64,000 nt of DNA, taken from contig JAWMAR010000136.1 in the NCBI GenBank assembly GCA_036785375.1, positions 1,612,001 through 1,676,000 on the forward strand, in the 5' to 3' direction. A program made the translations under genes and the position numbers. Within the stretch, counting starts at the first letter, position 1, and every line of letters begins with the position of its first letter. Of the stretch, positions 2,261-61,438 are shown in pieces. Below the pieces are notes generated by a model. That model saw only the letters and a list, made by a program, of their open reading frames with translations. It was not told the origin of the DNA and ran no database searches. This DNA comes from Leucoraja ocellata. Taxonomy: Eukaryota.

Positions 2261-2264
2261 TTAC

Positions 2265-29383: not shown

Positions 29384-29707
29384 TCCCAGAATCTACACCA
29401 AAAATTCTAATGACTCAGGGAGATTTAATAGCAGAGAAAGCATCTGTTTTGTACTGCCATGCATGGGGATTTTATCCTGAGAACATCACAATGCAATGGC
29501 AACATCCTCACAGAACTCAAGCTACAAAATCAGATGTTATTACCACAAAACTCTCCCCTTCCAGGAACTCTGATGGCACATTTAACGCAACAAGTCAAAT
29601 TAGTTTTACTCCCACCTTGCAAGACCACAGGACAGTCTGTACTTGTCAGGTTCTTCATACAACAAGCAAAGAGTGGATAATGCAACACATAACACTCAAT
29701 GTTAATT
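29384..29707 (+). CDS. Gene B exon 3: Ig C1-set domain
   Basis: Acceptor atttgttccag (alternative in-frame AG 6 nt downstream), donor AATT|gtaagt. C1 signatures LYCHAWGFYP..I.MQW, N.DGTF..TS, CTCQVLH. Confidence 0.92.
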
Positions 29708-30634
29708 GTAAGTATGTTCATTTAATGCTCTTTCATTACAATTTACAATTACGTACCATGGATCTACCTGACGTGGGCTAAGTTCTAAGTATTTAACTTT
29801 TAGCCTTTTAAATAACTAGGTAATGTCAGAAATGGATACATCAGTAAACTGTCCTCTCACCTTGATGTTTCAGTCTCAAATTGACTGTGGTGAAGGTCTG
29901 CTTGATCTTGTAGTCTTATACAATTTGGCCAGGATGTGGTGTAAAGTGAAGTGGTTCTCTCAAAATCCAAACTAAGCACTAGGGTGTAGGCTACAAGTGA
30001 GCACGTTCCACTGGATAACAATGCCAACATTGCTTTTCATGGACATTGCTGATGATTGAGAGTTAACAGTCTATAATTAATTGACTTTTTGAAAGGGACC
30101 TGCCTGGTGATTAATCCATGCTGATAGCTATGCAATGTTGTAAATGTACCGAAACAGCATGGCTGGAGACAATGGGATAGAACATCACCCAATGAGGCAT
30201 GTTGTCTCTCCTATTGATTCCTGTGAAGATTTATAGCCCGTGGATCACATTGCTAACACTTCTAATTGGTAACAAATTTCAACAATGCTTTTCTCAATCT
30301 CAATTGTTGAGTTAGCTGGAACATAGTGGACATTTCTAGCTATCCATTTTAGCACGGGTCTAGAGGAGGGATAAAACATTTGTCAGTGATAATTACAGTG
30401 ATTTAGGAATGCAGAAAGATTGAAGAAGATGGAATTTTACCAAGTTGAATGGAGAAAGTCAAGGAAGTTAATGCATAAAACTACAGATGTTGAAATCTGA
30501 AACATGAACCAAAATGTTAGAAGAACTCACCCGGTCCAGATGAAAGAGAAACAATAATTTGATTCATTGACCCTTCCTTGGAAATGGAGAGACTGGAGAG
30601 AGTTTAGTTTAGTTTTGTTTAGAAACACAGTATG

Positions 30635-30910
30635 GAAACCGGCCCTTCGACCCACCAAGTCCGCGCCTACCAGCTATTCCCACACATTAACACTATGCTA
30701 CACACATTAGGGACAGTTTACATATATATAATTTACATTTATACCAAGCCAACCTACAAATCTGTACATCTTTGGAGCGTGGGAGGAAACGGAAGATCTC
30801 GGAGAAAACCCACGCAGGTCACGGGGAGGACGTACAAATTCAGTATAGAGCACGTTACGTCAGGATCTAACCTGGATCTCTGCCATTGTAAGGCAGCAAC
30901 ACTACTGCTG
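30635..30910 (-). mobile_element. tRNA-derived V-SINE-type element (further copies about 41270-41550 -, 54470-54620 +, 61770-62030 -)
   Basis: Shared core ggagaaaacccacgcaggtcacggggag.acgtacaaac across the copies. Confidence 0.7.
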
Positions 30911-31092
30911 CAGTAATTCTACTGGAGTGCAGGGTTTACAGTTTTCAAAGCAGAGCTGGAGGGAGGAATGAGAGGCAAGACAATGGAGATAAGTTAAGAC
31001 AGGTCAGATATTAAGGACCATGACTGTTCAAATAAGCTGTTTGTGAAAGGAACATAAGGACACATTAGGAGATCAGTATCTGAAGTTGGAAA

Positions 31093-31607
31093 ACATAGAA
31101 ACATAGAAAATAGGTGCAGGAGAAGGCCATTCGGCCCTTCGAGCCAGCACTGCCATTCAATATGATCATGGTTGATCCTCCAACTCAGGATCCTGTACCT
31201 GCCTTCTCTCCATACCCCCTGATCCCTTTAGCCACAAGGGCCACATCTAACTCCCTCTTAAATATAGCCAATGAACTGGCCTCAACTACCTTCTGTGGCA
31301 GAGAATTCCAGAGATTCACCACTCTCTGTGTGAAAAAAGTTCTTCTCATCTCGGTCCTAAAAGATTTCCCCCTTATCCTTAAACTGTGACCCCTTGTTCT
31401 GGATTTCCCCAACATCGGGAACAATCTACCTGCATCTAGCCTGTCCAACCCCTTAAGAATTTTGTAAGTTTCTATAAGATCCCCCCTCAATCTTCTAAAT
31501 TCTAGCGAGTACAAACCGAGCCTATCCAGTCTTTCTTCATATGAAAGTCCTGACATCCCAGGAATCAGTCTGGTGAACCTTCTCTGTACTCCCTCTATGG
31601 CAAGAAT
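31093..31607 (-). mobile_element. CR1 LINE 3' fragment
   Basis: ORF with VQRRFTRLIPG..GLSYEERL..LGLYSLE.RRLRGDLIE.YKIL. Confidence 0.9.
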
Positions 31608-31914
31608 GCGTAATATTAATTCCGGAAGATTGCAAAAGTACCTCAACAGATGATAAGATGTTGTTCTAGTTTATGTCGGGCATCACTACTGGGAGTGGAG
31701 CGGCCACTGATGCACAGGTCAGAATAGAAGTAGAATTGAGAAATAAATTGGGAAGTACTAGGAAGCTGGGGATCACTACTAGACCACTGAGTGCAGGTGC
31801 TCATCAAAACTACCATTATATCTGCATTTGTTTCCTCCAATGTAGTGGAGACCAAATTGAGATAATCATATCCAGTACATTACATTGGACAAAACCTCAT
31901 CTGCCTCTTAATGA

Positions 31915-32262
31915 GGAAGGTTGTTCCCGATGTTGGGGAAGTCCAGGACAAGGGGTCACAGCTTAAGGATAAGGGGGAAATCCTTTAAAACCGAGATGAG
32001 AAGAACTTTTTTCACACGGAGAGTGGTGAATCTCTGGAACTCTCTGCCACAGAGGGTAGTTGAGGCCAGTTCATTGGCTATATTTAAGAGGGAGTTAGAT
32101 GTGGCCCTTGTGGCTAAGGGGATCAGGGGGTATGGAGAGAAGGCAGGTACGGGATACTGAGTTGGATGATCAGCCATGATCATATTGAATGGCGGTGCAG
32201 GCTCGAAGGGCCGAATGGCTTACCCCTGCACCTAATTTCTATGTTTCTATGTTTCTATGTTT
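31915..32262 (+). mobile_element. CR1 LINE 3' fragment, inverted relative to the copy at 31093
   Basis: TRGHSLRIRGKSF..EMRRTFFT..VVNLWNSLP and (TTCTATGT)n tail. Confidence 0.9.
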
Positions 32263-32939
32263 AATGAGTAATTCTCTTAATTAATGAAGGGTTTTGAAAG
32301 GGAAAATTGAGAAAGGTTATTGGCCAAAAATTAACCTGCACATTGCTAAAATCTAACAGGGATGTTCAAATGACACAAACTCACACAGTACTGTATACAA
32401 TTGCACTTCTTATCTGTCAACTATTAAGCTTGCAGCCTTCCTCACCACCACTGATCCAAACAAACCATCAAATCTTGAACTTTCATGGCAACTCTGCCAG
32501 TCTGATTTGCCAGTCTGATTTGCATTTACTTCTCATGGCCTTTGTTGGTTCTGAAGCCACCCATTAGGCCAAATGGTGTAGGAAAAGTATAACCGTGAAT
32601 TCAATGTCATGCCATTGGGGTGTAAGCTACCCAAGCAGAACATTAGGTGCCGTTCTTTCACTTAGTATGTGGCCTCACTCTTGTGATGGAGGAATGTATG
32701 GGCAAAATCTGGACTCTTGTTTTATGCCAACACTGGAGTAATTGGCCAAATAACCTCCACAATTTTATAAAACATTCAGTACTGTTAATCAAAATGGTAT
32801 TTCAAATATGCAAAATCTATTTTAAATAACAGGCTAAAAATGAGGCGCAAATACAAAGGGGTGACAGGTGGTACTTTCGAAGCTTTGTTGAAGCTGCCCT
32901 TGTGACTAATGCCGTTTCTTTTTCACTGTTCTGATTGAG

Positions 32940-33260
32940 ATGGTCCACAGCCAGCAATACAATACAGGAATTCTATTGCGCATCAATTGCAGCCTCTGCT
33001 CCAAGACATCATCTATGTTGAACCTCAGTCGTATCTTCAACTAAATTGTACCACGGACAGTAATCCAATATCCACGGTCATCTGGATGAAATCGGGAGAG
33101 CAAACTGAAAGGATACAATTGACTATTGGATTAAGCCATTCAAATCTGCAGAAAGAGAAGATCGATGATTCCTTCAATGGAAAGTATATCTGCAGAGCTT
33201 ACAATTCATATGGCGCCAAAGAATCTTCTGTGAGAGTATACGTGACATCAGATTGGAAAA
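32940..33260 (+). CDS. Gene B exon 4: Ig C2/I-set domain
   Basis: Acceptor ...ctgttctgattgag, donor AAAA|gtaagt, 321 nt, phase 1/1. YGPQ, LNCTTDSNP..TVIW, GKYICRAYNSYG. Confidence 0.9.
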
Positions 33261-33526
33261 GTAAGTACCGTTATATCGGTCAAATACACAATATTTTTCT
33301 AATTTGTTAATTTATAGAGGGGTGATGTGCAAAATCAGGCTCCTGTAACAACTGAGGCTCCTGCCAAATCATTGATATTCTACACTTTCCAGTAAGCAGA
33401 ATGACAATACATGAATACAATCGAGCCATCCACACTGTACAGATAGATGCATGATAAAGGGAATAGTGTGAATATGTTTAGTGCAAGATTAAGTCCAGTA
33501 AAGTCTGATAAAAAATAGTCCAAGGG

Positions 33527-33972
33527 CACAGCACATTTGGAAGAAATGAGACTCCTCCTAATAGACATACAAGACCAATTCTTAATGAGTTGGTCCCCAT
33601 TTATTGGTTTCTTGGATTCATGTGGAGCTACAGTATCGTGAAAATTAAAAGTTTCAGGTATGGGTGAAAGCCGATCGAGAACATAAAAAATCATCTCCTT
33701 GTGGCGATTGAATAAACTCCCTCCTGCTTTCTCTCCTCACTTATTTCTTTTCTTCATTATTTTCTTTATCTGCCTGTTACTCACACACACTAGCCTATCC
33801 TTCACTCTTTACTACCTCTTTTTCCTTTTTTCTCTTCTTACTTTTCTCTTTAAAAAAAAAGGAAGTTGTACAGAGAATGTAATATGTTAACATAATTTTG
33901 GGTACCTATAGAGAGGTACCACTGTATTGTACTTACTTCTAATAAATAAAATTATATTAAAAAAAAAAAAAA
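33527..33972 (+). mobile_element. 5'-truncated L1/Tx1-type LINE insertion with poly(A) and TSD
   Basis: ORF2 C-terminus HLEEMR..F..WSPFIGFL*, AATAAA plus poly(A). (aaaa)atagtccaaggg is duplicated on both sides. Confidence 0.75.
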
Positions 33973-34333
33973 TAGTCCAAGGGTCTCCAATGAGGTAGAT
34001 GGTAGCTTAGGACTGCTACCTAGTTGTTGATAGGAAGGCTCAGTTGCCTGATTTTGCCTTTGTGAATCATACATGAAGCAGCCTGAATTGCATTCATCTA
34101 TATGACCATCCACATTTCAGAGGGTAAGCACATTGTGGATGGAATGAATTAAATTCAATGAGAACAATCGAACATTGAAATTACAAATTAACATGTCTAG
34201 CCTAACGTGTTAGTGAGAACACAATTAATGGTATTTTTTTAAATATTCTAACGTGGTCAGATACGTCAGCTATTAAAAAAGAGTATATCACAATGTCTGT
34301 GCCAAACATGATGCCAAGTTAAACTGATCTCAG

Positions 34334-34495
34334 GTACACAAAATTGCTGGAGAAACTCAGCGGGTGCAGCAGCATCTATGGAGCGAAGGAAATAGGCCAC
34401 CCCTATTTCCTTTGCTCCATAGATGCTGCTACACCCGCTGAGTTTCTCCAGCAATTTTGTGTACCTTCGATCTTCCAGCATCTGCAGTTCCCTCT
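34334..34495. repeat. Palindromic Penelope-derived repeat (similar hairpins about 6050-6190, 17260-17500, 36200-36395, 40165-40335)
   Basis: aggtacacaaaattgctggagaaactcagcgggtg... paired with its reverse complement. Confidence 0.8.
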
Positions 34496-34789
34496 TGAAC
34501 ACTTAAACTGATCTCATCTGCCTGTACAAGATCCGTATCCCTCCATCCCCTGCATATCCATGTGCCTATCCAAAAGCCTCTATCGTAGCTGCCTCCACCA
34601 CAAGCCCTGGCAGTGTGTTCCAGGCCCCCACCACCACCATCACATTGTGCCAAAAAAAACTTGCCCCTCACTTCTCCAATAAACTTTCCCCCTCTCACTT
34701 TATGCCAACATTATACAACGAGTATACGGGTCTTAACTGCAATTTGAATGGATTGTAGTAAATCAATAACATTTGGATTCTTCCAATGA

Positions 34790-35440
34790 GTCTTGATTTT
34801 CTGATGCCCAGACCACAATCTGACAGCACCTCCTTCACAATAATTGTCAATATCAGTGCCCTGCAAGGATGCTTTCTCAGACCCTTACTGTATTCCCGAT
34901 ACACTAATGACTGTACGGCCAAATTCGGTTCAAAGTCCATCCACAAATTTGCAGATGACAACAGCGTGGTGGGCTGGATCATGAACAATGATAAGAAAGG
35001 AAAGATATAGAGCACTCAGTAAAATTGTGTTAGGAAAATATGGACAGAAGTCTACACATATTGACAATAACCTCTCCCTCAATGTTCGCAAGATGAGCGA
35101 TCTAGTTATCAATGTCTGAAAGTGTGGTGCAAAACATGGCCTATCGCCATCAATAAAGTAGAAATGGTTGAGATCTTAAATTGTCTTGCCTTTAATATTA
35201 TTAATTCAATGACTCTGATAATATATTATTTAATGACTCTTACAAACTTCCACAAAAGCACCATAGAAAGCCTACTGTTGGGTTGTAACACAGCTTGGTT
35301 TGGGAGCAGTTCTACCCAAGGCTGCAAGAAATTGCAGAGAATAGTAGATGTAGCCCAGACCTTCATACAGTCCAGACTTCCCACCATTGATCCCATCTAC
35401 ACTCCACTCTGCCTCAGAAAAGCAGCCAAAATAATGTAAA
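34790..35440 (+). mobile_element. Degenerate L2/Rex1-clade LINE RT fragment (similar copies about 6420-6760, 59800-60480; upstream part about 51277-52030 -)
   Basis: QGCFL.PLLYS.YTNDC...KFADD remnant. Confidence 0.75.
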
Positions 35441-36053
35441 CTTTGGCATCCTTCTTCACAGTCCGTGACCCCAGCAATCTTGATATCATCTGCAAACTAA
35501 CTATAACCATATAACAATTACAGCACGGAAACAGGCCATCTTGACCCTTCTAGTCCGTGCCGAACACGTATTCTCCCCTAGTCCCATGTACCTGCGCTCA
35601 GACCATAACCCTCCATTCCTTTCTCGTCCATATAACTATCCAATTCCAACTATCATGGGGTTTGTTTATGAAACTGATGTGCTACAATGCTGAGAACTAT
35701 ATTCTGCACTTTGCATCTTCTCCTTTGCTTTATTTACTGTGCTTGAGTTTGATGTGATTGTATTTATGTGCAGCATATCTGATCTGGTTTGATATCATCC
35801 AAAACAAAGCTTTTCACTGGACATTGGTAAACATGGCAATAAGAGATATAACCCTAGATGGGCTGGTACAATCCTATCTCACAAATTATGGCATGGAGAA
35901 TCTACAGCAGCATTAATGAGAAATGAATTTGCAATTCATGATATAAATACTGTACTGAATCGATACGCAAGGAAGGCAATTTAACTGATATTTGCTAGCG
36001 TTCTTTTATACTGATGCAAACCATAAGAAACCCTATTTTTTGTTGTATAACAG

Positions 36054-36131
36054 GTCATTTCCCTGTCCGATTTGTAACGGTGCCCATCTTCGTGACGACT
36101 GTGATTTTGTTACTGCTCTGCTGCAGGAAAG
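36054..36131 (+). CDS. Gene B exon 5: transmembrane (SHFPVRFVTVPIFVTTVILLLLCCRK)
   Basis: Acceptor tttttgttgtataacag, donor AAAG|gtaaat, 78 nt, phase 1/1. Hydrophobic run followed by CC-RK. Confidence 0.82.
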
Positions 36132-44983: not shown

Positions 44984-47900
44984 TTAGTGTTCCTCGCTGG
45001 GAAAGGCTGTGAGCTAAAATACTTTAAGAACCATAGCACACATTTATATTCAATCATGCCACTGCATCGTCTGAAACAATTCATATTAGCTCTCAAATGT
45101 TTTTAAGTTTCTAAGCACAAAAGTTAATATCAACAATGTTCAAAACATGCAAATTGTGCACATAGTTTAACAGTAATAAGTAAAGTACAAGTATTTAATT
45201 AAATACATATTATGCTTTTTTGGAAAACTGGAGAATAAAAGATTAATTTTCCAATTTATAATTTTAAATTTGAAGAACAGACATTAGGAAAGAATAAAAA
45301 TTGCATCGGGTACAAAACCAAAGCTTGTTTTGGTACCAGTCTGTCTCTTGGTGCTAATGGAAAATAGGTGCAGGAGAGGCTCTTGGCCCTGCACTGCAGG
45401 ATCAAATGAAAGAGAGAAAAAAAAAACCACATCTGGTCAGATCTAAACAATTTTTATTCACCAGATGTGGATTTTGATTCAGATTGGCAATCTGATTGTC
45501 AGGCTAAAGAAATGTGCACATCTGTTTGTAAACCATCACAATATTTTAAGCAAAAAAACAACGTTCATAATTTGGTCGGGGCAAAGTAAATAGCAACCTG
45601 CTGAAATAAAAAAGGCAGTCATCCTATTGATATTTACATTGATGTTGGTTTATTAATGCCATGTGTACCAAGGTACAGTAAACATCTTTGATTTGGTGCT
45701 ATCTAGGCAAATCACACCATACATGAGTGCATCAGGTAATGCAAAAGAGAACATAAACAGTGGTGTATATTGTGTTACAATTACAGAGAAATTGCAGATT
45801 AAAGGAAGTACATGAGCTGTAACAAGTAGATTGGAAGTGGTCCTTTCAAATGTTTGATAAAATTGATGAAGAAACTTTGTCAATCTGGTGAATCATGCTT
45901 TTAAACGTTTGTATCTTCTGCCCAGGTGCAAATCTGCTGGGTGTAGTACATGAACACCCAAGGGGGTGGGTGACATAATTCCACTGATCTGGTGTTCGTC
46001 TGAAAGGAGAATGTCATTGCTAGTGATTCTGGCTGGTAGTCCATTATAGCATGCAAGGTTTGGCAGAATCAAGTCTCTTTGTGGTTTCGTCTCTTGGCAT
46101 TCCTGATGTCTTTGTGATGGTACTACCTAGATTTCTTGTACACAGTTCATCCATTGTTTCCAGTTGGGGAACACCCAGATTGACATCTGTGACATGCAGT
46201 CCTTTAAACACTTATTGATGAACCCTGTGACAAAACCAGTGTACCCACTTAGGGCCGAGTGCTTGAACATGGACCAGTCCACCGACTCAAACAGTAACGT
46301 AGGAGCTCATGTTTAATCAGACAAATACTGTTCTACTTTCAATACCAAATCCTATTGATACAGTTTCTTCTTGTATGCAGGAAGGAAGAGCAGAGTCTGT
46401 AAGTCAGATGTGTCGCAGTGTTCGAGGGCATTTGAGCCTCTGGTGGGACATGACACGTGCTGATAGTATCTTGGTAGCTCACAGGTCGGCCTGGTCTAGC
46501 CCAAACATTGAAGAACAAGTCCTCAGGGTATTTCGTTTCAAGGCTATTGGTTGTGGATCACACTACGGAGATTGATTTGCAGAGAACCAGACAAAATATA
46601 TTCATTTTTTGAATTTGCTTTGACCTGCAACTTTATCACAAAAAAATGTAATTCCACAGATTTTAAATATTAATGCAAGAGTCTGTTCAGCTTCTGAAGA
46701 TACATTGATTACATGTTGAGAATGCAACAGGAGTGATTAGATCCCCAAAATCTCTATGTACATATTTCCAAGCATCTGTCCCAGGGAACATTACATGCAA
46801 CACGACATTAGAACTATTCTTAAATTCACCCGTGACAAATGCACAATTCACAACACACAGATACAGACATATACGAAACATGATGTCACAAATGTTGTTG
46901 TTGTTACTGTTACAATTGGAATCTGAGATTAAAACGTCACAACCATTATGAATTATCCATCACTTATCTCCAGGAAGATGAGATAAGATTATTTCTTCAT
47001 ACTTATTTTCTGATGGTGTAGTGTATAAATAGGCCATCCCCAGCTTAGAACCAACATTTGCTGCAACTGGGAATGCGATCATTAGACTAGGTACTCCGAT
47101 TCAATGGTGGGCTTGGAAAATGTTGATTATTTATGATTCATTTGTATGAACTTTTAATTTTAAGTAAGTCAGATCGGCACTTCAATGTTATCACATGATT
47201 TGATCAGTACAACTGCTGCATGTGAGCAAACTAGCATCCTTTACAGAAGATTAGTTTCATCACCATAACTTGCTTGTCCAGCCCCATTCCCAGAGTACCA
47301 TAGTTATTTGCTCTCACAGTTAGCACAGATACACTCAATCCAAGAGCAAAAATTACCAAATTTAGTTCACAAAAATATTTTCATTCGTATATTTAGAATG
47401 ATGGACAGGAAATAATGTCAATTCCAAATTAGAAATTACCTGAATTATTTTGGTCCTGTACTGTTTGAATAAATGTTAAACAGGTCTGTATACAGGACTT
47501 CAAATTTCCTTGTTGTGATTGGATAAATGTGAAGGCCGTAATCGCAGCACAATATTGAAGCAGAGAAGCAGAGAAAGTCTACTTACCCTTCTCCAAACTT
47601 GCAATATACCTCTGACTTGTGAGTTCAAAGAGTCAACATTTTTAATTTTAAGTTTTGCCTGCTTTGTTAAAAATAATGAAATTAATTTTACTAATTACAG
47701 TTTCATCTTTTAAAACAGAATGTCAAAAGACAAAGTTCGCCTCAAGGGGAAGTAGGAGAAGTAGTTTACCACAAACTAAATATTGCTGTATTGGCATTGA
47801 CTGAACCAAAAAACACATTCAGTGGAGAGGCTTGGAAAGACTTTTTAATGACCAATACCACTAACTATTGTCACTAACCATTGTTTTTGTAATTTGTATT

Positions 47901-48374
47901 TTTATATCCAGTACTGCATTTATATATGGCCCTCTGAAGCCTCACAAAATCAGAACTATTTTAAAAGATATTTTAAATTATTTGATAATGTAAAAATAAA
48001 TCTATCTCGTTAGTATACAATAAATGTCAAAACACTGTTCGCAGTATATGGCTTGTGACTTTAGGTAGTCATGGATGCTTAACAGTTAAATGCACAGAAG
48101 CATTACAAATCATAATTCATATCCAGCTGAAATGCCCTCTTATCACAATAGACAAAGGAATGTTCAATATATGGCCCAAAATGTCATGCATACAAGCTGA
48201 AAGTGTTACGTATTATTGCAACTTTTCAGGATTGTCCCTCAGATGACCATAATTGAAATGTTGCTGGAGCATGTTTTGCAAATATCCTCTTTATATTGCA
48301 CATTACTTGAATGGGAAATGATCTTTCAAGAACTGCAGGTTTTCAGAACTCGGTATCTCGCAACATTTGCGTTT

Positions 48375-48436
48375 CTACAAGAGGAATGGAAAATTCCAAA
48401 TGACCACAGCAAGTGGGAGTAGCAGCAAGAACGGAC
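48375..48436 (-). CDS. Gene C last coding exon: C-terminal hydrophobic GPI signal (GPFLLLLPLAVVIWNFPFLL*)
   Basis: Acceptor cttctattcttttcag, phase 1. Hydrophobic residues run up to the TAG with no cytoplasmic tail. Confidence 0.72.
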
Positions 48437-48844
48437 CTGAAAAGAATAGAAGTTTTGCATGAATTACACAAATTATTTTTCAAAGCATCTAAAGCACGTC
48501 AATGATAAACAATTAATCTGATGGTCGAATTCTTTACAATTTAATCATCATAAGGACAAATTCAATCGTGCATTTTCAGAGGATGAGTTGGGCAATTGAT
48601 CATTCCTGTTGTATGAGGTGCTTAGAGATTCGGCCTTGTGTTGCAATATTAATCATTTATTTATGTGAAGTGGACATCACTGTTATTCAATGACCACCCC
48701 ATTTGTCTCTCAGGATCCAGAAATGCTGCCTGCCCAACTGAGTTACTCCAGCATTTTGTGTCTATCTTAGATTTAAATCAGCATCTGCAGTTCTTCCCTA
48801 CACACTAGAATTATTTCAATCCTTCTCGTGAATGGAATTACATA

Positions 48845-49370
48845 GTTACATAGACAATAGGTGCAGGAGTAGGCCCTTCGGCCCTTCGAGCCAGAACCAC
48901 CATTCAATGTGGTTATGGCTGATCATCCACAATTAGTACCCCGTTCCTGCCTTCTCCCCATATCCCATGATTCAACTAGCCCCAAGAGCTCTATCTAAGT
49001 CTCTTTTGAATGCATCCAGTGAATCAGCCCCCACTGCCTTCTGAGGCAGAGAATTCCACAAATTTACAACTCTCTGGGTGAAAATGTTTCTCCTCATCTC
49101 AGTTCTAAATGGCCTACCCCTTATTCTTAAACTGTGGCCCCTGGTTCTGGACTCCCACTACATCGGGAACACGTTTCCCGCATCTAGCATATGTCCTTCC
49201 TCAAATTAGGAGGCCAAATCGGCACACAATACTTCAGGTGTGGTCTCACCAGGGTCATGTACAACTGCAGAAGGACCTCTTTGCTCCTTTACTCAACTCC
49301 TCTTGTTATAAAGGCCAGCATGCCATTAGCTTTCTTCACTGCCTGCTGTGTCTGCATGCTTACTTCCAAG
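48845..49370 (-). mobile_element. CR1 LINE fragments
   Basis: CR1 3'UTR and LVRPHLKYCV.IWPP remnant on minus. Confidence 0.8.
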
Positions 49371-50654
49371 AAATGATCAGGAATTTCCAGGAAGTCAATC
49401 TTTGATGATAAAGGCTCTGTGAAATATTTCCAAGTCAAATTGGTGCTTGACGTAGAATGAAAATATCAAACACTAGAGGGCATAGCTCTAACGTGATGGG
49501 CAAAGATTAAAGGAGATGTGCTGGGCAAGTTGTTTTTGTACACAGAGGGTAGTGAGAACACACTGCCAATGATGATAATAGATGCAGGTTGCTAGTGGCA
49601 TTAAAGAGACTTTAGAATAAACTCATGGATATGGAGGGATACAGATTATGTGCAGGCAGATAAGGGTTGGACTTGGCATTATGTTCAGCACAGACATTGC
49701 AGGCTGAAGGGCCTGTTCCTGTGTTCAACTGTTCTATGGAACCACAGGTGGCAGTGTCCACCATGGCCTGTTGCCCTCATTTTTTGTTTTGTTTGACGAG
49801 GTCAAGTGTTGACGCAACCTTGGTGAGGATTGCAGTGCATTTGTGAATCGCTTATGTTTCCGTTTTGGTGCATGCCAATAAGCAGGCGGATTTGTCCTGA
49901 ATATTATTGGACAGGTGGAGCTGTGTTCTGGCAAATGAATGATGTTCCATCAAAATCTTGACTTGTGGGTTCCAGATGGTGGAAAGTCAAAATATTGGTT
50001 AGATTGCAATAAGGGTGTACAGTTCTGGTCAGCATATGGCAGGAAAAATGTAATAGCTATAAAGCACGCACAGGATTCATTAGCATTGCTTGGAACTGAG
50101 TTATGTTGGTATATGGACGGATTAGATAGGCTGGGTTTATTATTACTGAAATTATCACATGAGGTTGAGACATGACCTTAATAACAATTATACAATTATC
50201 AGAGGCACATATACGATAGATAATCGGAAAATTTAACCCAGTGGAGCCCACAACTAGAGGGCACAGGTTTACGGTGAAAACTTTAAAGGAGATCTGAGGG
50301 GAAAGTTTTTTTACAGTAGTGCTGAAAATATGGAAGAGCTGCCAGGACATGTAATGGAGATGGATGCAATTACAATGTTGATAAGGCGTTTGGACAGATA
50401 CTTAGGTAGGAAACATATGAAGGAATATGAGCCTAATGCAGGCAAATGGGGTTAGCCAAGCAACATGGTTGGTGTGGACGGGGTAGGCTGGAAGGGCCAA
50501 CATCTGTGCTGTATCTTTATACAATTCCACAATACCATGAGAGGAGGCGAGAGTTCTGGAGTTGAATTACATCAAAGTAATTTGTAATTTCCCACATTCA
50601 ACAATGCTTTTTTTTTTGCGTGTTGAAAGATTAGCTAAGCCCTTACATTCATAC

Positions 50655-50699
50655 CTGCTGTTGTACAAATGCCATGAGAACCAGGTAACATTCTGCTGC
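50655..50699 (-). CDS. Gene C coding exon 3: stalk / GPI omega region (GSRMLPGSHGICTTA)
   Basis: Acceptor cttctattttattacag, donor GCAG|gtatga, 45 nt, phase 1/1, open. Confidence 0.7.
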
Positions 50700-51089
50700 C
50701 TGTAATAAAATAGAAGACATCAATCAGACAAGAATACTTGAAAGACATCACTTGAATTTCCAAAACACCAGTTCAGATTTCATAAAAGGAACATCGAAGT
50801 ATGAAATACATTATTTATGTTGGCAGAAAAGTCCATCACAGCCCTTGCTGAGCAAAACTTGTGCTATTCAATTGCCTTGAGCTTTTTGAAGATATGAAAT
50901 CTGTTTCAATCCAGTGCAATTGGCAGTGTTTTTGCTTTTCAAAATATCCTTTGTTTGCAGAATGATTATATAATATTTTTTAATTGATTCAGCTGAAAAT
51001 AGATTGGGCAGATAGCTGGAAATACATGTAGGTGGTGGATAAATCAGTCGTCTTAAAATGGACACAAGATGCTAGAGTAACTCAGCATT

Positions 51090-51272
51090 TCTACGGATGC
51101 CGTTTGGGTTACAGAACGCAGGGCAATCGTTCCAGCGTTACATGGACCACGTACTCTCCGGCCTCGATTCAGTCTACGCATACATCAATGACATGTTGGT
51201 AGCGAGCTCCAGCAAAGAAGAACACAAGAAACACCTCGGATTATTGTTTCGGCGTCTCAAACTTGAACATTG
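51090..51272 (+). mobile_element. Short Gypsy RT fragment
   Basis: RMPFGLQNAGQSFQRYMD.VL.GL..VYAYINDMLVAS. Confidence 0.8.
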
Positions 51273-54200
51273 TGCAATCACGTCCCTGTCGAAGCGGCCA
51301 TAGAAGTGATTAAGCTCCTCAAGGAAGGAGGCATCGCTGGATGTGGGGGTGATGTTGGTGGGTCTATAGTCTGTGATGGCCTGGATGCCTTGCCACATGC
51401 GTCGGGAGTCGGGGTTGTTGTTGAAGTGCTCCTCAATCCTGAGCTTATGGCAGTGCTTGGCCTTCTTGATGCCCCTCTTCAGGTTAGCCCTGGATGAACT
51501 GTAGGCTCGAGCATCGCCTGACCTGAAAGCGGTGTCCCGTGCTTTCAGCAGTAGTCTACCTCGCTGTTCATCCATGGTTTCTGATTCAGGAATATGGTCA
51601 CCCATTTGTGGGAGGTGACACTATTGATGGTGGAGTTTATAAAGTCCAGAACAGAGCATGTGCAGGAATCAATGTCCGTGTGGGAGTCAAGGGTGGCCTG
51701 GGCTGCAAACGCCTTCCAGTCAGTGTTTCCAAAACACTGCTGAAGTGTGGAGTCCGCTTCCTCTGACCAGACTTTAACTGTCCTCACAGTTGGTTTAACC
51801 CGTCTGATGAGTGGGGAGTACTTAGGGAGCAGGAACAATGAGAGGTGATCAGGTGGGGGAGGGGGACGGCTTTGTAAGCTTCAGCCATGTTAGTGTCGAC
51901 TTTGTCCAGTGTCTTGCCTACTCTACTGGCGAAGGAGACATGTTGGTGGAATTTGGGGAGTACAGTCTTCAGGTTGGAGTGATTGAAGTCACCCGCAACA
52001 ATGAAGGCTGCCTCGGGGTTGTGTTTTCATTCTGGGTCGGAGTGGAAAAATCTTTCTGGGCAGCAGAGGTTTTTGTGCCAAATCATTAACATGCATCTAA
52101 ACTAAATCTGCAGAAGAATCACAATATTACTCCCTAGTTCTAGCGCCTCAGAAGTTGCAAGGAGACCTGATACGGTATATAAAATTAAGAGGCACAGAAA
52201 GGGTAGACAGTCAGGACCGTTTTCCTCAGAGTGCAAACATTAAAGCCAGTGGGCATTGTTTTAAAGTGGGTGGGCCAAAGTTAAAAGATGTGCAGGGTGA
52301 GAGGGCATCTCATCTGCCTCCAGTATTTTTTAACATCAGAAATGCAATCTCAAACAATTATTTGAATTTTGCTGACTGTGGTAGTGGGACTCATGTGCTT
52401 TACTTGATCCAGTCAGCACTGATGACTCCTCTCAGCACTGGGAAGTTTACGCAATGAGCCCCCTCCTTTTACCACATTGCTTTCCAGCTGTTAAAATAGA
52501 ATGTGAAATATAAACCCTGCTTTATATGGCTGACTAAATGAACTGTTTTCAAGAGTGCATTTTCACAAACTGAAACTGTATTATAGGAATTTAAATTTAA
52601 AAGAAACAGGAAGGCAGACAGATTTCAGTTTCCAAAAACTTCCTCAATTTAACTTTACAAAATCTACAAAAGCTAGCCAAACTAAAACCCTTTCAAAACA
52701 ATTAGGCTTTGGACTGATCTCTTGCAAATTAGGATGGTTTAAATTAAAAATGAATATACTGGATACCAACTATGATTAGAAGTTATGAGTTAATGGAATA
52801 ATTATTTCTCAGTTGCTTTTTGTTTGAAAAAAATATGAATAGCAAGAAGCAAGTAGGGCAAAGATTTGTTTTGTGGCAAATTAGTAATGCAAATGTTCTA
52901 TTTATCATGATCCTAACAAGTACTTCCTGCATTTTTCTGGAGGTTAGAGTTATATTCTGTTTTTTACCATCTGTCTCAATTATTCAGATTCAATTTTAAT
53001 TGTCATTGGCAGTGTACAGTACAGAGACAACAAAATGCAATTACCACCATGCAAGGGGTATGAAGAAGGGTCTCAACCCGAAATGTCACCTATTCCTTTT
53101 CCCCAGGCATGTTGCTTCACCCGCTGAGTCACTCTAACATTTTGTGTCTATCTTTGGTGTAAACCAGCATCTGCTACATGTTCCATCCTGCATGTATGGT
53201 TATGGGATTTGGTGTGTGGGGAGGAATATAAACTTTCAGATATTATGAAGATTCACTTCCAATTTGGAACTGTAGGTGAATCTTCATGAGTGTGATACAG
53301 GCCAAATCTTGACAATAGGCCACAACGTTTGAAATTGTCACTTGGAGAAGAAATATCAGCTCTTGATATTAATAGTAGTGTAATAAGGCTTCACCATACA
53401 TTTCATCTGATCTAGTGCAGAGTGTAAAATGAGACATAAAAAAATAGAACAGTTCAGCACATTGGCCCACAATGTCCATTTTTCAAGAGAGTTTGATTTA
53501 GCCCTTAGGGCTAAAGGAATTAAGGGATAAGGGGGAAAAAGCAGGAACATGGTACTGATTTTGGATGATCAGCTTTGATCATATTGAATGGCAATGATAG
53601 CTCAAAGGGCCGAATGGCCTACTCCAGCACCTATTTTCTATGTTTCAATGTTTTTATGTATCCATGCCAAGTTAAATTAATCTCCTCTACGTCCACATGA
53701 TCCATGCCCCGCATATCCATATCCCTAGCTAACAGCCTCTTAAACGCCACAATTATATTTGCCTCCACCACCACCCATGGCAGCGCATTAGAGACGCCCA
53801 ACACTCGCTGTGCTAAAACACTTGCCCCATGCTTCTCTTTTATTTCTTGCCCCACTCACAGCACTATGCTCTCCAGGCTTTGAAATTTCCACTGAAAAAA
53901 TGTTCTGGCTGTCTACCCGAGCAAGGCTTTTCATAAATGTATACACTTCTATCAGGTGCCCCCTCAACCTCCAACACTCCAGGGAAATCAATTCAAGTCT
54001 GTCCACCCTCTCTCCCACACTCTAATCCAGGCAGAAAATTTGCACTTTAGGCAAATCAATCTGAAACACAACTCCAAAGTACACAATTGCACAGAGATGT
54101 TGGTGTTTTAAATAACTTAAGGATTATACACTGAACAACAAAGAAAAGTGTCCACTTTGGACCGGTGGCCATTTAAATGGTGGTGAGATAGAAATGCTAC

Positions 54201-56312
54201 CTCAGAAAAATGTTTAATTGTAGATATAAAGCAGGTGATGTTCTCTGCATATTTACTTAAGATGACTTTCTGACACAAAGATCAAGGAAGTAAACCGTAA
54301 ATATCACCTCCCCTCCCCCCCTGTGGTCTCACTGACTGTAAGTCACAGATTCACATGAATATCAGCTGATTTCTATTTGAATTTCACGAGAAACATCCTT
54401 CCGTAAACAAAGTTCAATGTATTATATTTAACTGTAATCACTCACTCTTTTGGCTGCTGCAGATTTTTTTTAACTGGGCGAAGCTGTTAGAGCTGCCGGA
54501 GAGCTGGGTTCAATCATGACTTGGGTAACGTTAGTGTGGAGCTTACACACTCTCCCCGTGACCGTGTGGGTTTAATCCGGTTGGGTTTCCCCCTTGTGTG
54601 TAGGCAGTGGATGAGAAAGTGGAATAACATGGAACTAGTGGGATAACATAGAACATATATGGGCTCTATCTGTGGAAAGGTGTGCTGCCACTGGAAAGGG
54701 TCCAGAGGTGGATTTTGAGAATGATCCCTGGAATGATTGGGTCAACATGTGATCAGTGTTTGATGGCAGTGGGCCTGTACAAGCTGGAGTTTAGATGAAT
54801 GGGAACCTCATTGAAACTTAGCCAACAGTGAAAAGCCTGGATAGAGTGGATGTAGAGAGGATGTTTCCACTAGTGGTAGAGTTTGCATAACCTTTGAAAG
54901 GAGACGAGGAGGAATTTCTTCAGTCAGTGTGTGGTGAATCGATGGAATTTATCACCACAGAAGGCTGTGCAGGCCACCAATGGACATTTTGAAGGTGGAA
55001 ATTGACAGATTGTTGATTAATACGGGAGTCAGAAGGCAGGAGAATGGGGTTGAGAGGGAAAGATAGATCATCCATGATTGAATGGCAGAGTAAGCTTGAT
55101 GGGCCGAATGGCCTAATTCTGCTCCTACAACTGATGAACTTATGAACTAGTGTGATCGGGTGATCGATCGTCGGCATAGACTCGGTGGGCTAAAGGACCT
55201 GTTGCCATGCTGTACCTCTAAACAGTTGTGTAAGAATGTGTCAGCTAAAATTAAACTAAACGTCCTTACAATACAGAGGACTTCCAGCCCATCAAGTCAA
55301 TAGCAGCTAGCAATCCTGTTGGTTCCATTTCCTCTACTTGTTTCCCTGCAATCTGTTCTCTCTCAGATGCGTTTTCCCTCCCCACTGCTACTACTACTTC
55401 CCCCCTACACCAGCAGAAATATATGGCGGCCAATTGACTCTCCAGCTCATATTTGAGCTGCCCAGAAAACAGAAGCACTTGGGGAAAGTCCATACAGTGA
55501 GAGATTGAAATGCCACAGAGTTGGTGCCAGAGATTAGACTCTTGAGTACAACAGCCTGGAATTCATGATGCAGCTTTGTATGACTTTAGTTAGGCCACAT
55601 TTGGAGTATAGAATGTAGTTTTAGTTGCTCCAATACAAGAAGGATGTGGAGGGTTTTGAAGGTTTACCTGAACGATGCCTGGATTAGACAGTATTAGCTA
55701 CAGGGGACTCGGATTGGACAAACTTGGATTGTTTTCTCTGGAACACCGGGGTTGTGGGGGGAACTAACAGAAGTATATAAAATTATGAGAGGCATAGATC
55801 AGGAAGACAGTCAGAACCTCCACCCCCCCCCCCCCCCCCCACCCCCACCTCACCAGGGTGGAAATGCACACTAGAGGCCATAGCTATAAAGTTACACATA
55901 GCGCATAACAATACAGCTAGAAATCTTTTTCCCAAGATCGAAAAGTCAAATACTAGAGAACGCATCTTTATGGTGAGAGGGGAAAAGTTTAAAGGAGATG
56001 TGTGGGGCGCGTTTTTTGTCTTTACACAGAGGGTGGTGAGTGCCTGGAGTGCACTGCTGGGATTTGTGGTTGAGGCAGATGTTCGTTAATGGCATTTAAT
56101 AGACTTTTGGATATGGCAACAAATTGGTCTGCAACTGAGGAAACATCAGCACAAACTTTTCAGTCCTGGAATCCAGCTATACTCCAGCCAATGCATAGAT
56201 GACACATGAAATTGATTTACTGCCACATATAAATCCCAACTTATGAATTGATTTTGTCATAATATTTGACTTGAAAGTACCTTAAAGCCACACCAATTTT
56301 TAAAACACCCAC

Positions 56313-56618
56313 CTTGTGTTACAAGCAAGCTAACTTTGCATTCAAAAGTGTTATCTTTTGTGTACAAGTAGGCAGTATAATTTCCAGAATCTGAGTATTT
56401 CACTTCTATAACAGTTAAGGTAATTTCTTCTTTGTCTACGTGAAGTTGAAATCCAGTACACCTTGGTTCGGGTTCCTCGTTTAAATTCTCATAGCAAATT
56501 GTTTCAGCTTTTTTCTGCCAGTATGCAATATAACTTTTATCTGTGATCTTTAATGAGTGTGGACACTTCAGCGATCCCGGTCTGCCGGCTATCAGGGTGA
56601 CTTTTAAATCTTTAATGC
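56313..56618 (-). CDS. Gene C coding exon 2: atypical IgV domain (B7/CD2-like)
   Basis: Acceptor tttgtttttaaacag, donor CAAG|gtgggt, 306 nt open: IKDLKVTLIAGRPGSLKCPHSLKITDKSYIAYWQKKAETICYENLNEEPEPRCTGFQLHVDKEEITLTVIEVKYSDSGNYTAYLYTKDNTFECKVSLLVTQ. Not in the ORF track. Confidence 0.88.
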
Positions 56619-56680
56619 CTGTTTAAAAACAAATACAAAAAGAAAACATTCAGCATTTTGAAAACACCCATATTTAATCT

Positions 56681-56715
56681 CAGTCTGAAGAAGGGTTTCG
56701 ACCCGAAACATTGCC
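56681..56715 (+). ncRNA. Minimal hammerhead ribozyme motif
   Basis: CUGAAGA-A-GGGU(UUCG)ACCC-GAAA-CAUU. Stem III is imperfect. Confidence 0.5.
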
Positions 56716-59222
56716 TATTTCCTTCGCTCCATAGATGCTGCCTCAGCCGCTGAGTTTCTGCAGTATTTTTGTCTACCTTCGATTTTCCAGCATCTGCAGT
56801 TCTTTCTTAAACATATTTCATTTATGTCTTGACCTAAGCAACTAATGTATAAGGAATGAAAGTTGGAATTTTATGTCCATCAGTTATTATTAGCCCAAAT
56901 CTGGAAGTAAAAAATTGTGCTTTGGGCAGGTGCAAAATGTATGCACCCAATTCCTGTTTCATCCGACCAATTAGAAACATGGAGCAGCATTTCTTGCTGT
57001 GCTCAGCTAAGATGGATTTGAGTTCTCACATGCTTTAGAAAAACTGGGTTGTGAAGTCATTTTGTGCAATTAAGATGAGACAGGAGAAATAATCCAAGCA
57101 ATTCTTGTGCAAAGCAATCATGGACAAAACTATGTCTCCAGTACAGCAATGTTTTAGTGTGTGCTTTCACTTATCATACAATTTAGACCACATGAGGTCA
57201 AATTCTGTGACATCAAATCATGTAATTGAATTGATTAAGGTATGTTAATTGTGGCTGGTCACACGCTGACCTTCAGTCACTTTAATCAAATGCTCAGCAA
57301 TTTCTAGAGGGTTGTAAACTAAAAGAACCGGGTAGGCCGGGAAAAAGCTAGCCAGCGAGAGCAAGCGGAGAGGGAGAGGGAGAGAGGGATGAGGAGGAGA
57401 GTGACAAGAGAGCTTGGGGGAATGATAGAAGGTGAGAAGTGAGAGATGGCACAAGGAAGGATGCAAAAAGGGTGAGAGAGATAGATCAGCCAGACAACAG
57501 AGGAGCTGGGTTTTGTCGGGAAAAAGTTATAATTAGAACTAGATTCAAGTCAACCACATACTGAAATAAACACATTTAATTTTTTGAATGTGGGCCAATG
57601 GAACTGAATTACTGGAGCACAGTTCCTTGCAAATATGTTATTGCCAAATTGTGCCGACATTTATTCCTGGAAAAGTCTTTGACAGTTTCCAGTGCTGAGT
57701 CTGCGTCATTTTGTTGGACTTCACTCTGCATTGAACATGGTATAAAATAGTTTGGATGGAACTGTGTGAAAATAGAACTGGAAGTAATCCATTCTCCCAC
57801 TTACGCCAAACACAACAATGAAGTTTAAAATAATTTAACTTCAACAGATTGGGATAGAAAACTGCCCTCTCTTTTACATGTAAAATGTGCAAACAGGAAC
57901 ATATTTGCAAAGAACTCCGCTCCAATAATTCTGTTCCTTTGACTTACATTTCAAATTTCTACTCAATTATTTTTAAATATTTTGCAATATTCTGAATGTT
58001 CTTCTGTTCCCACAAATAGCAAATTAAATAAACGAATTGCCTGTTGGTAAGTGTAACCAAGTTCCCATCATTTAAATAGTTTGTAAACTGAGCATATTCC
58101 AGGAACCCAACAAATGCAAAGTTCTCCCTTTGAAACCCAAAATAGAAGTGTTGTGTTTTCCGTATATATCTCCCGAGAGTTTTTTTCAAATTATACCATA
58201 ATAGCCTCCTTCATTTAGCAATAACAAATAATAATTTTCTACAATATCAAATAAAGTTACATTAACATCTTGCACTGAAATAACCCATTTGCAACTATAA
58301 TTACATTGTTATCCAACGTACTATTTCTCATAATTATAAAAAAATAATTCTACCCAAATATACAGGGACAGATTCACAACAAGAAAATATTAAATTGCAT
58401 TGACGCAGATGATGTTGTGGGCACAGAAACTATCTCATCGGAATACTCCTCTTCATTGCATCAATAGCATTGGATCACAATGGGTGCCGGCGAGGTAGGA
58501 TTTTGTGTTTACAGCTGCCCTACTGTGGCCTTCCACACATCTTAAAACAATTTCACAGCTCATTTGAAATCCTGCAATTGCTCCAAAGCTGGAAAATTTA
58601 GTACCCAGTTTGTTCCTAACATCAAAGAGCAATTTTAATCTGTTGTCATGGTGCAGGTTCAGTGATTCAGAGCTGAAATCTAGCATCTCGTGCACTGAAG
58701 CGCTAATTTAGATAATACAAGGAGGGTAATTCCAAACCATGGTAACTGACCAGAGGCAGGCCAAGCTGCCGCACTGCTATGGAAACATTAGATATCGTTT
58801 GTGTTGCTTCCTCATTTAGTGGATTATTTATAAATAAGGATTTAACTAGAATCTTGACACAGCAAAGATACGTTGAGTAAGTAAGCAGCCAGCCTCATAA
58901 CTGAGGAAATACACAAAATGCTTGAATAACTCAGCAAATCAGGCAGGTTCCCTGGAGAACATGGATAGGCGATGAGTCGGAAGAAGGGTCTCAACCCAAA
59001 AGGGCACTTGTCTATGTTCTCCATGGCCATTGCCTGACCCGCTGAGTTAATCCAGCATTGTGTGCCTTTCCTTGGTAAACCAGCATCTGTGGTATCTTGT
59101 ATCTGCGGCTTCATAACTATATCGATCGGAAATGATTACCTGTGACTGTAGGTACAACAACTTAAACTAAGAATATTTATCTGTCCACTTTGTTCCATCA
59201 GTTGCATCAATTCAATACTTAC

Positions 59223-59289
59223 TCTCAGAATTTACTTCCAGTATGAATGTTAATAAGATAACGTGGATGATACTTGGTAATCCACCCAT
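59223..59289 (-). CDS. Gene C coding exon 1: signal peptide (MGGLPSIIHVILLTFILEVNSE)
   Basis: Exon begins at 59301 after ttcctttctttgcag. ATG at 59289, hydrophobic core, phase-1 donor GAGA|gtaagt. Confidence 0.82.
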
Positions 59290-61333
59290 TTCTGTGGAAA
59301 TCTGCAAAGAAAGGAAATGGTTAAACAATGAAAAAATTCATCCTTGCCATTCTATATTCTGTAACACAGTGGCTGAAAATCAACAATGTGGGAACAATGG
59401 GTAGGAAGGAACTGCAGATGCTGGTTTAAACTGTAGATAGACACAAAATGCTTGAGTAACTCAGCGGGACAGGCAGCATCTCTGAATAGAAGAAATGGGT
59501 AACATTTCAGGTCGAGACCCTTCGTCAGACTGAATCAGAGGAGAAGGAGATATAGAGATAAGGAAGTATAAAATGTGAAAATGAGACAAAGGTGATATCA
59601 AGGGTCTCTTTTCTACATTCCTTAATCTCTGTCTCGTTTTCATACCTTCCACTTCCTTATCTCTGTATGCCCCTCTCCCCTTATGTCTCTGGTACACCAA
59701 AATTAGACTCCTATTTATTGACTAAAGCTCTGCCTTCAAAGCCATAAGAGCCCACACCCCCACCCACCCACACACCCACCCACACACACCTGTGCGGCAC
59801 AATGCGGCTCTAACTCCATCCACAAGTTCACAGATGACACCACTACGGAGTTACCAAGCAATCACGAGCAATGATGAGCTCGAGAGCTTAGTAACATGGA
59901 GTCAAGCCAACACCCTCTCCCTCAACAAAACCAAGTTGATAGTTATCGATTTCAGGAACTGTGGTGGAATACATTTCACAATCAGCAACAATGGTGCCAA
60001 AGTGGAAATGGTTGAGAACTTCAAGTTTCTAGGCATGAATATTATCAACAATCTGTTGTGGAATAATCCACATTGAAGCAACAGTATAAAACACACATCA
60101 ACACTTCTACTTCCTTAGGCGACTGCGGAATTTGGCACATCTCCAACGAGACTTACATACTTCTACAGATGCACCTCACACTATTGAGTTGCACCACAAC
60201 TTGGTTTAGGAATAGCTCTGACCAAGTACACAAGATATTGAAGATATGAAGATGTAGCTCAGGCCATCACACTGATCAGACATCCCAACATTAACTCCAT
60301 CTACATTAACTACATTGGGAAAGCAGCCAACATAATAAAGGATCTTTCCACCTCGGTCATTTCTTCTCCCCCCCCACTTCCAATTGGCAGAAGTTATGAA
60401 ACTTAAAAACACACACCATTAGACTCAAGAAATTCTTCCCCTCTATTATCAGCCTTTTGAACAGTGCATCCATAAGCTAGGATACAATCTCCAACCTTTC
60501 TCATTGTGGACATTGGACTTTTTCCTCTAAACTGTTGCATTATACTTCTGATCTGTTTATTCATAGCAGTTAGAGGGTTGTGGTGAAAGGTAGATATTCT
60601 GGCTGGACGCCTGTGATCAGTGGAGTTCTGCAGGGATCTCTGTAGTTTGCGAGGCATATAAATGACTCGGACGTAAATGTAGATGGGTTGGTGAGCAAGT
60701 TTGCTGATGACACCAAAACTGGAGGAACTGCAAACAGTGAGGAAGGCTGTCAGAAGATACAGAGGGATATAGATCAGCTGCAGAAATACCAGAGGAAATT
60801 TAACCTAAGTAGGAGGTGCTCCACTTCAGGAGGTTCAGTGGAAGGGGAAAGTAGTTTTGTTTTTACATAAAGAGTAATGGGGGGGGTCTGAAATGCATTG
60901 CCAGGGGTGTTGACGGAGGCAGTATTATAGTTGTGTTCAAGAGGCTTTTCGTCAGGTACATGGAAGTGCAGGAAATAGAGTGATATGGATCGTGTACAGG
61001 CAGATGAGATCAGTTTAACTTGGTATCATGCTTGGCACAGATATAGAGAGCCAAAGAGCCCATTCCTGTGGTGTACCATTCTATGTACAATGCTGTGAAC
61101 TATATTCTGCACCTGGTATCATTTACTGCATTTTATCTTTTGTACCGTGGGTGTTGCCAGATCGCAGAATGCCAGACTCGAGACTTGGTTTCGTATTCTT
61201 TCAACATTTACTCTAAAACATGGACTGCAAAATAATAACAAAAGCCACCTCTTTCCAGTATTTTCATTTCTTCATTGCCTCAACTCTTTGCCTTGTTATT
61301 TTGAAATGTCTCCACAAAAGCTAACTTACTTAC

Positions 61334-61438
61334 ATACTGTTGGATGCACACTAATCAGGCAAAGTCCTGACCTGGCTTTTGAGCGAGTGGACAGCTACGA
61401 GCTCACGGCAGCAGGTCGACTCGCATCCTTTCGAACTT
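61334..61438 (-). other. Probable non-coding 5'UTR exon of gene C
   Basis: Acceptor tttttctctatcctacag and donor AT|gtaagt. Stops in all three frames. Contains the short uORF MRVDLLP*. Confidence 0.45.

Follow-up and report, generated by a model that had tools for sequence, protein, structure and literature searches.

A possible GPI-tethered, B7-like IgV ligand encoded beside paired-type receptor genes in the skate Leucoraja ocellata

Cartilaginous fish are the oldest lineage with immunity based on antibodies and T-cell receptors. Several described systems resemble, in part, the locus that we report here from the skate Leucoraja ocellata. Thy-1 (CD90) shares with its central gene, here called gene C, a signal peptide, one immunoglobulin (Ig) variable domain (IgV) on one phase-1 exon, a tail of the glycosylphosphatidylinositol (GPI) type and a length of about 160 amino acids (aa). 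CD160 is likewise a single-IgV, GPI-anchored protein, found on immune cells. The CD200R and SIRP clusters combine inhibitory, activating-like and tail-less receptors as the neighbours of gene C appear to do, with a linked ligand gene in the case of CD200 and VJ-type V plus C1 domains in the case of SIRP. Proteins of the B7 family (CD80, CD86 and ICOSL, which pair with CD28, CTLA-4 and ICOS) have V plus C domains; in the available text of a 2024 survey of the CD28 family in cartilaginous fish, its members are single IgV-transmembrane (TM)-cytoplasmic proteins in other synteny blocks, none with JHY/BSX, and the gene C locus is not listed in the main text (PMC11599192). We analyzed a window of 64,000 nucleotides (nt; G000:C136:1612001-1676000), whose numbering is used below unless a contig is given. 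Our reading, which we hold to be evenly balanced, is that gene C would encode a GPI-tethered, B7-like ligand of the adjacent V-C1-C2 paired receptors.

An earlier note, made from the DNA letters alone, had proposed gene C as four phase-compatible exons that were missed by the open reading frame (ORF) track and encode a 159-aa protein. Its exact coordinates and frame were borne out, and the transcript extends beyond them at both ends:

61372..61438, minus strand: non-coding 5' exon, 67 nt, with AG/GT sites; contig 6 of run X1 and a contig of X3 join it to exon 1
59223..59301, minus strand: exon 1, 79 nt; 12 nt of untranslated region (UTR), ATG at 59289, predicted signal peptide at about residues 1-23
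56313..56618, minus strand: exon 2, 306 nt; the entire IgV domain, residues 24-124
50655..50699, minus strand: exon 3, 45 nt; a 15-codon stalk, with candidate omega residue Ser132 (S-H-G) at 50679-50677
48375..48436, minus strand: coding part of exon 4, 62 nt, with TAG at its end; putative hydrophobic C-terminal propeptide up to the stop
46280..48374, minus strand: 3' UTR, about 2.1 kb, from contig 7 of X2 and read depth

Each of the four coding exons has an AG acceptor and the first three have a GT donor. All three introns are in phase 1. A search with the V exon alone as query found a database protein (P0002, 159 aa; Logan, 19 contigs, longest 3121 nt) to which the joined frame is identical from end to end. 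Every motif named in the note is present (L.C.H...YWQK, DSGxY.A, PGSHG and the hydrophobic end), and the ATG has the same position in four species. The non-coding exon carries a 7-codon upstream ORF and no in-frame ATG; more 5' sequence probably lies upstream of it. At the other end, the poly(A) signal is probably ATTAAA at 46317.

Eight RNA runs were aligned; of 325 and of 64 joints, the joint tables list in each case the 15 with the best support. The junctions on which the note depended were all found: joints 50655/48436 and 56313/50699 in seven of eight runs each (22 and 25 raw reads in X18, 17 and 11 in X19), and joint 59223/56618 in four of eight (20 reads in X19, 8 in X21, a contig of X3 and contig 7 of X2). 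Joint 59223/56618 is absent among the 15 of 325 joints shown for X1, X18 and X22, and none of the gene's joints was seen in the single-cell run X16, sampled at about 1 in 100. One 2615-nt contig covers every coding exon and 2.1 kb of 3' UTR. Run X22 behaves as stranded (depth 10.8 vs 0 in the first 3' UTR bin) and places the RNA off the minus strand; the convergent orientation with neighbour gene B, claimed in the note, is supported. The runs are mostly from a close relative or another strain, as contig 7 of X2 illustrates with 31 differing letters in 1935 nt of UTR and none in the V exon. Gene C is a real, spliced and expressed elasmobranch gene.

Orthologues from one ray and two sharks are already in RefSeq or GenBank, without a name or as 'uncharacterized', so that the gene was hidden from the ORF track only, RefSeq having modelled the orthologues. 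An uncharacterized RefSeq protein of Rhinoraja longicauda, from LOC144608712, is 79% identical to gene C. Searching 1.84 billion representatives by HMMER with a skate/ray profile gave 21 matches: three short and full-length (Rhinoraja, Chiloscyllium punctatum GCC23276.1 and Mustelus asterias LOC144479844) and 18 long multi-Ig proteins with partial alignment. A wider profile, with 4618 candidates, led back to the same four clusters. Within the reach of these searches the family appears restricted to elasmobranchs; bony-fish or chimaera orthologues could be missed at a skate-shark identity of 34-37%. Within its own genome gene C is single-copy, with two matches at E ≤ 1 among 54 candidates, namely itself and an unrelated V exon (E 0.19). 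No published description of gene C or of the receptor cluster was found in the literature searched, which left most subscription journals outside its coverage; UrIg2, as presented in the available text of PMC12227049, is a different gene.

The protein consists of a hydrophobic N-terminus (hydropathy 2.95), one V-set domain with a single N-glycan sequon (N102), a 15-residue stalk and a hydrophobic end. The signal peptide is predicted to be cut near residue 23. There are no charged residues in the last 32 aa, and the most hydrophobic 19-residue stretch (2.13) has no residues after it. By hand rules Ser132 is the sole omega candidate, leaving a 27-residue propeptide; Rhinoraja (P0003) and Chiloscyllium (P0011) fit these rules equally and Mustelus (P0031) less well. 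In all three orthologues, too, the hydrophobic stretch runs up to the stop, and a small residue 22-28 positions before the end is an omega candidate. GPI anchoring of the product is likely, and we would put considerable confidence in it. The note's description of an uncharacterised protein with a signal peptide, a single IgV and a GPI-like tail is thereby supported, the tail by hand rules only. Improbable, in our estimate, is a protein that is not GPI-linked, having instead an uncleaved C-terminal hydrophobic helix, or a main isoform with a true TM segment and tail. By length and hydrophobicity the final 19 residues could span a membrane, and the joints not shown (310 and 49) are most of the tables, but neither gene C nor any of its three full-length orthologues has a charged stop-transfer residue or tail, Pro/Asn lie within the hydrophobic stretch and the small omega residue sits at the usual distance. 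Splicing of these exons to a further Ig or TM-plus-tail exon, the outcome that the note named as fatal to its model, does not occur among the joints shown, and a search for longer proteins gave no longer homologue among 7993 candidates, which is weak evidence.

The domain has the features of the IgSF V-set (B-strand Cys, C-strand Trp, D.G.Y motif and a nine-strand sandwich with C'). Pfam V-set scores it under the cut-off (P0002, E 1.5e-4) and the P0011 orthologue over it (E 7.7e-6). Every match in fold searches was an IgV (Z 8.5-9.6; top root-mean-square deviation 3.1, 103 aligned). The single-sequence AlphaFold model is unusable (pLDDT 42), and the six-sequence model is of low confidence (pLDDT 58, pTM 0.44).

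Where gene C departs from the V-set is the canonical B-F disulfide. Its residues are Cys41 (B), Trp56 (C), Cys64 (C'), Cys76 (C''/D), Ala105 at the usual F-strand Cys site and Cys116 (G). The B-strand, C' and C''/D cysteines are invariant in all six aligned sequences. Skate, Rhinoraja and Mustelus have Ala/Gly/Ser at the F-strand position and a G-strand Cys; Chiloscyllium is the reverse, with the F Cys present and the G Cys absent. This exchange among orthologues implies a switch to a B-G disulfide, and we infer that the gene C domain is closed by Cys41-Cys116 and Cys64-Cys76. Cys116 aligns with the G-strand Cys of titin I65-I70 (3b43), for which a buried CysB-CysG bond is established in the available text of PMC5766482. 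Titin Ig domains are intracellular and I-set; they give a geometric precedent only, and no kinship is claimed. The Cys switch appears to be a new observation, and as a natural F-to-G exchange among orthologues it would illustrate, in compact form, how disulfides are rewired in an extracellular IgV domain.

Searches of the PDB with gene C and its orthologues gave weak, tied matches only (CD80, CRTAM, IgLON, pIgR, CD4, titin). Searches by fold returned ties among generic IgV domains and, besides these, generic viral Ig proteins, with no family call and no sign of viral origin. The note had pointed to CD80, and that likeness is real though weak (E 0.001-0.02): the profile scores E 0.0013, the bamboo-shark orthologue has CD80 as its best single-domain whole-V PDB match (E 0.015), and the C-strand YW(Q/K)K aligns to CD80. 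CD86, ICOSL and B7-H6 score Z 9.0-9.3 in the fold searches, level with other IgV domains. Membership in the B7 family fails by architecture, as the V exon splices to a stalk and a terminal exon, with no C domain, TM segment or tail.

Other candidate families were compared as well. Proteins of the CD2/SLAM type have an N-terminal V domain without the B-F disulfide, followed by a C2 domain. The note's comparison with them is not supported: the B-strand Cys is kept in six of six sequences, a G-strand Cys replaces the missing F Cys, and the transcript has no C2 exon. CRTAM is a weak top match (E 0.046; Foldseek ranks 2-5) and presumably belongs just upstream of JHY, where a motif search of 100 kb found no CRTAM V exon; that gene C is a relocated CRTAM orthologue is unlikely. 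The V-C1(-C2)-TM architecture of the CRTAM/CADM family is unlike gene C. CD160 is not listed among the 27 PDB matches at E ≤ 10 nor among the 41 at E ≤ 2, where fast divergence could hide a kinship, and we take it to lie in a different genomic block. CD200 (V-C2-TM) and CD47 (five-pass) differ in architecture and show no sequence match beyond weak V-set scores. On the tested features gene C falls outside Thy-1, B7, CD2/SLAM and CRTAM; it would combine Thy-1/CD160-like anchoring with, if the complex model below holds, B7-like binding.

The adjacent receptor genes are as follows:

26639..36131, plus strand: neighbour B; V 26639-26986, C1 about 29359-29778, C2-type about 32939-33307, TM exon 36054-36131
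2254..7195, minus strand: neighbour A1; V 6848-7195, C1, C2-type and TM exon
G000:C136:1570400-1600396, 12-42 kb left of the window: neighbour A2, a tandem copy of A1, with three putative Tyr-motif tail exons

Together they form an apparently undescribed three-gene V-C1-C2-TM cluster with VJ-type V domains (G000:C136:1570400-1648200; L024-L027 and window 2254-36131). The V domains of A1, A2 and B are 78-88% mutually identical. A2 is followed by three spliceable exons, its putative tail, with the motifs TIYAVV, VSYADI and SEYSVV, which we take to be ITIM/ITSM-like. A1 is predicted to be tail-less, with an in-frame TAA six residues past the TM segment where A2 has CAA, and B has an Arg at the outer TM edge. 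The genes are likely a trio of paired-type receptors, inhibitory-like, tail-less and Arg-bearing.

The FG loop of the receptor V domain reads YxC-x8-PP-x4-GxG, with PNxFPP invariant in five of five copies. It resembles, without matching, the CDR3 motifs of the CD28 family (PPP or EIP consensus) given in the available text of PMC11599192. CD28-family membership of A1, A2 and B was rejected on their V-C1-C2-TM exons, as opposed to a single IgV; they also differ in lacking PPP/EIP and in lying next to the putative ligand gene. The pattern MYPPPY, used to look for skate CD28, had 38 matches, with no Ig exon among the 28 examined. When the genome was searched for V-set members, antigen-receptor loci dominated the results (150 of 1893 scored).

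Further copies and insertions accompany the cluster. A short contig (G000:C4410:12312-29961; L084, L085) carries two more receptor V exons, one identical to A1 and one 91% identical to A2. It is probably the other haplotype, which would imply receptor polymorphism. Intergenic-looking sequence at window 10213-11041 and L023:742-1524 was duplicated with A1/A2 and marks a recent tandem duplication of about 19.6 kb. A Ty3/Gypsy-type retrotransposon with a gag-pol-like open frame of more than 1150 aa lies between the TM and tail exons of A2 (L026:6539-10000, L025:1-765).

Prediction of a complex between the V domains of A2 and gene C gave an ipSAE of 0.69 (0.69, 0.70, 0.69) vs 0.01 for the best of three controls. 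The runs agree in at least 92% of contacts, with partner pLDDT of at least 86. In a microbial calibration, 51 of 78 solved complexes reach the ipSAE mark, as do 2 of 108 mismatched pairs. The eukaryotic figures are 39 of 65 for solved pairs that have no like complex (12 of 29 where the interface is small) and 2 of 126 for unrelated pairs. In the model the PNxFPP loop packs on I53, Y55, Q57, T62, Y65, Y106 and Y108 of gene C. Y55 lies at the centre of the contacts and corresponds in the alignment to the Tyr of the CD80 RIYWQK strand; CD80 Tyr31 touches the MYPPPY loop of CTLA-4 in the available text of PMC7825301. The geometry is CTLA-4/B7-like, and the modelled AGFCC' face set against a proline FG loop followed by GxG recalls B7-CD28 pairs as far as they are described in the available text of PMC7825301 and PMC11599192. 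Both sharks retain Y55, Y65 and E115, and five of five receptor copies retain the core of the loop. The model supports binding of gene C to A2 without demonstrating it. The note had suggested an uncharacterised immune ligand or decoy, and an immune ligand is probable; the note had not tied gene C to the neighbouring receptors, to which the model now points.

Under this reading, the signal peptide would be cleaved near residue 23 and the last 27 residues exchanged for GPI at Ser132. With no cytoplasmic part, the product could not signal by itself. Its AGFCC' face would meet the proline-rich FG loop of a receptor on another cell, as B7 meets CD28 or CTLA-4. Engagement of A2, through its Tyr-motif tail, would damp the receptor cell, B might activate via an adaptor, using the Arg at its TM edge, and the tail-less A1 might act as a buffer.

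Several observations weigh against a receptor-ligand pair. The modelled interface has few contacts (39-42), the control partners were unrelated to gene C and were not IgV domains, A2 was the only receptor tested, and 7 of 44 blind neighbours also pass the ipSAE mark. The pass may reflect that the predictor had learned solved structures of CTLA-4/ICOS-B7 or of other IgV-IgV pairs. The interface is not significantly more conserved or variable than the rest of the domain: 12/18 vs 57/83 positions are identical to Rhinoraja (p 1.0) and 3/18 vs 20/83 others are kept in both sharks (p 0.76), with p 0.26-1.0 over the conservation tests. The likeness to CD80 is tied with matches to titin, contactin, IgLON, pIgR, CRTAM and CD4. 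Receptor tails were assigned by position and splice sites, not RNA, and tail exons of B were looked for and not found. On the ligand side, the Mustelus omega candidate has a poor spacer. Gene C also stands among adhesion genes of 11q24-25 type, with an IgLON exon (OPCML/NTM, E 1.4e-15) 270 kb to its right, a setting that makes a non-immune role possible. Lastly, Thy-1 clusters headed the results of a language-model feature search (Atlas) with the bamboo-shark orthologue (0.95-0.96; 15 of 30 matches).

That top rank led us to seek the true THY1 in the genome. A V exon at G000:C34:1009065-1009442 (plus strand; L073:9065-9442) has Thy-1 as its best single-domain PDB match (E 7.5e-10) and lies within 200 kb upstream of a USP-family gene that is followed by a C1q-domain exon. 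From gene order we take these to be USP2 and C1QTNF5; a first label of the former as USP12/46-like was superseded. We read the V exon as the true THY1 orthologue, whose last exon was not found in the skate. It aligns with gene C over 28 columns only (E-F strands; hhalign probability 6%), and Thy-1 is absent from gene C's 27 PDB matches at E ≤ 10. THY1 sits by USP2 on C34 and gene C on C136 beyond JHY and a BSX-like homeobox, on which Thy-1 orthology was rejected. The note's comparison with Thy-1 holds as analogy and not as orthology. The two share an ancestral chromosome block, and Thy-1 is nearest by language-model features; they are separate genes that differ in Cys pattern, in the 45-nt stalk exon that gene C has in addition, and in the lack of a significant profile match.

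The same evidence bears on a different function, that of a GPI-anchored, Thy-1-like adhesion or raft protein with another partner; the receptor neighbourhood would then be incidental, because the chromosome block is full of Ig genes. We consider this unlikely, although it is the strongest of the alternatives. Thy-1-like architecture and size and the feature-search ranking favour it, as do the ancestral block shared with THY1 and NECTIN1 (C34) and the IgLON gene (C136), and the place of IgLON D1 among the best partial profile matches. It is countered by the separate, largely unrelated THY1, and both the passing complex model and the fast change of the V domain favour the receptor link.

This change is faster than that of the gene's own signal peptide and tail: 69/101 vs 54/58 residues are identical between skate and Rhinoraja (Fisher p 3e-4). 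Such change is often seen in immune surface proteins. It is concentrated in residues 65-75, where 9 of 11 differ in Rhinoraja and where most differences between Logan variants (6-7 of 9 in P0007/P0008) and most indels lie. The variable loop would also suit a GPI-anchored or shed decoy or pathogen-facing receptor, with the C'-D loop under pressure from a microbe or virus and the protein soaking up that ligand instead of signalling via host receptors, and one annotated Mustelus isoform (P0013) lacks the hydrophobic tail. Pathogen-driven decoys usually expand in copy number. Gene C is single-copy and the loop variation may be relaxed constraint; we rate the decoy as decidedly unlikely.

The surroundings of the locus yielded further observations. 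Left of the window are JHY (Pfam E 2.6e-14), a homeobox gene that we take to be BSX and a PALP-family exon; by human gene order the region is presumably the 11q24-25 block. The PALP-family exon (L030:6381-6686), between the BSX-like gene and the receptor cluster, is presumably CBS-like, and a CBS paralogue in an 11q24-type block would fit the 21q/11q paralogon. C34 carries HSPA8-like, CBL-like and NECTIN1-like exons beside THY1. The BSX-like gene on C136 (L039) is not followed by HSPA8, and two tandem intron-containing HSP70 genes lie at G000:C34:4643854-4663486; the BSX-HSPA8 adjacency that we assume for human is thus broken in this genome. Right of the window, a multi-exon gene (L010-L014, G000:C136:~1746000-1796000, minus strand) looks otoancorin/stereocilin/mesothelin-like by eye, an identity that neither Pfam nor PDB confirmed. 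An unrelated V exon at L002:1423-1830 (G000:C535; Pfam V-set E 1.8e-12) with a YTCIFHTYPNG stretch is, we presume, TIGIT/CD200/CD96-like. Many genes are present in two copies, placed on separate contigs or in inverted pairs; haplotypes were apparently left uncollapsed in the assembly, so that copy counts should be read with caution.

Taken as a ligand with its receptors, gene C and its neighbours could form an undescribed linked checkpoint module of sharks and rays: a GPI-anchored single-V, B7-like ligand with a B-G disulfide, beside an inhibitory, tail-less and activating trio with a CD28-like proline loop. We hold this fuller picture more tentatively than the ligand role itself, placing it a little short of an even chance. 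If true, the module would branch off from CD28/B7 logic and take the form of a paired-receptor system. An orphan GPI-anchored IgV with an adjacent candidate receptor would extend what is known of the early history of costimulation and paired receptors by one receptor-ligand pair.

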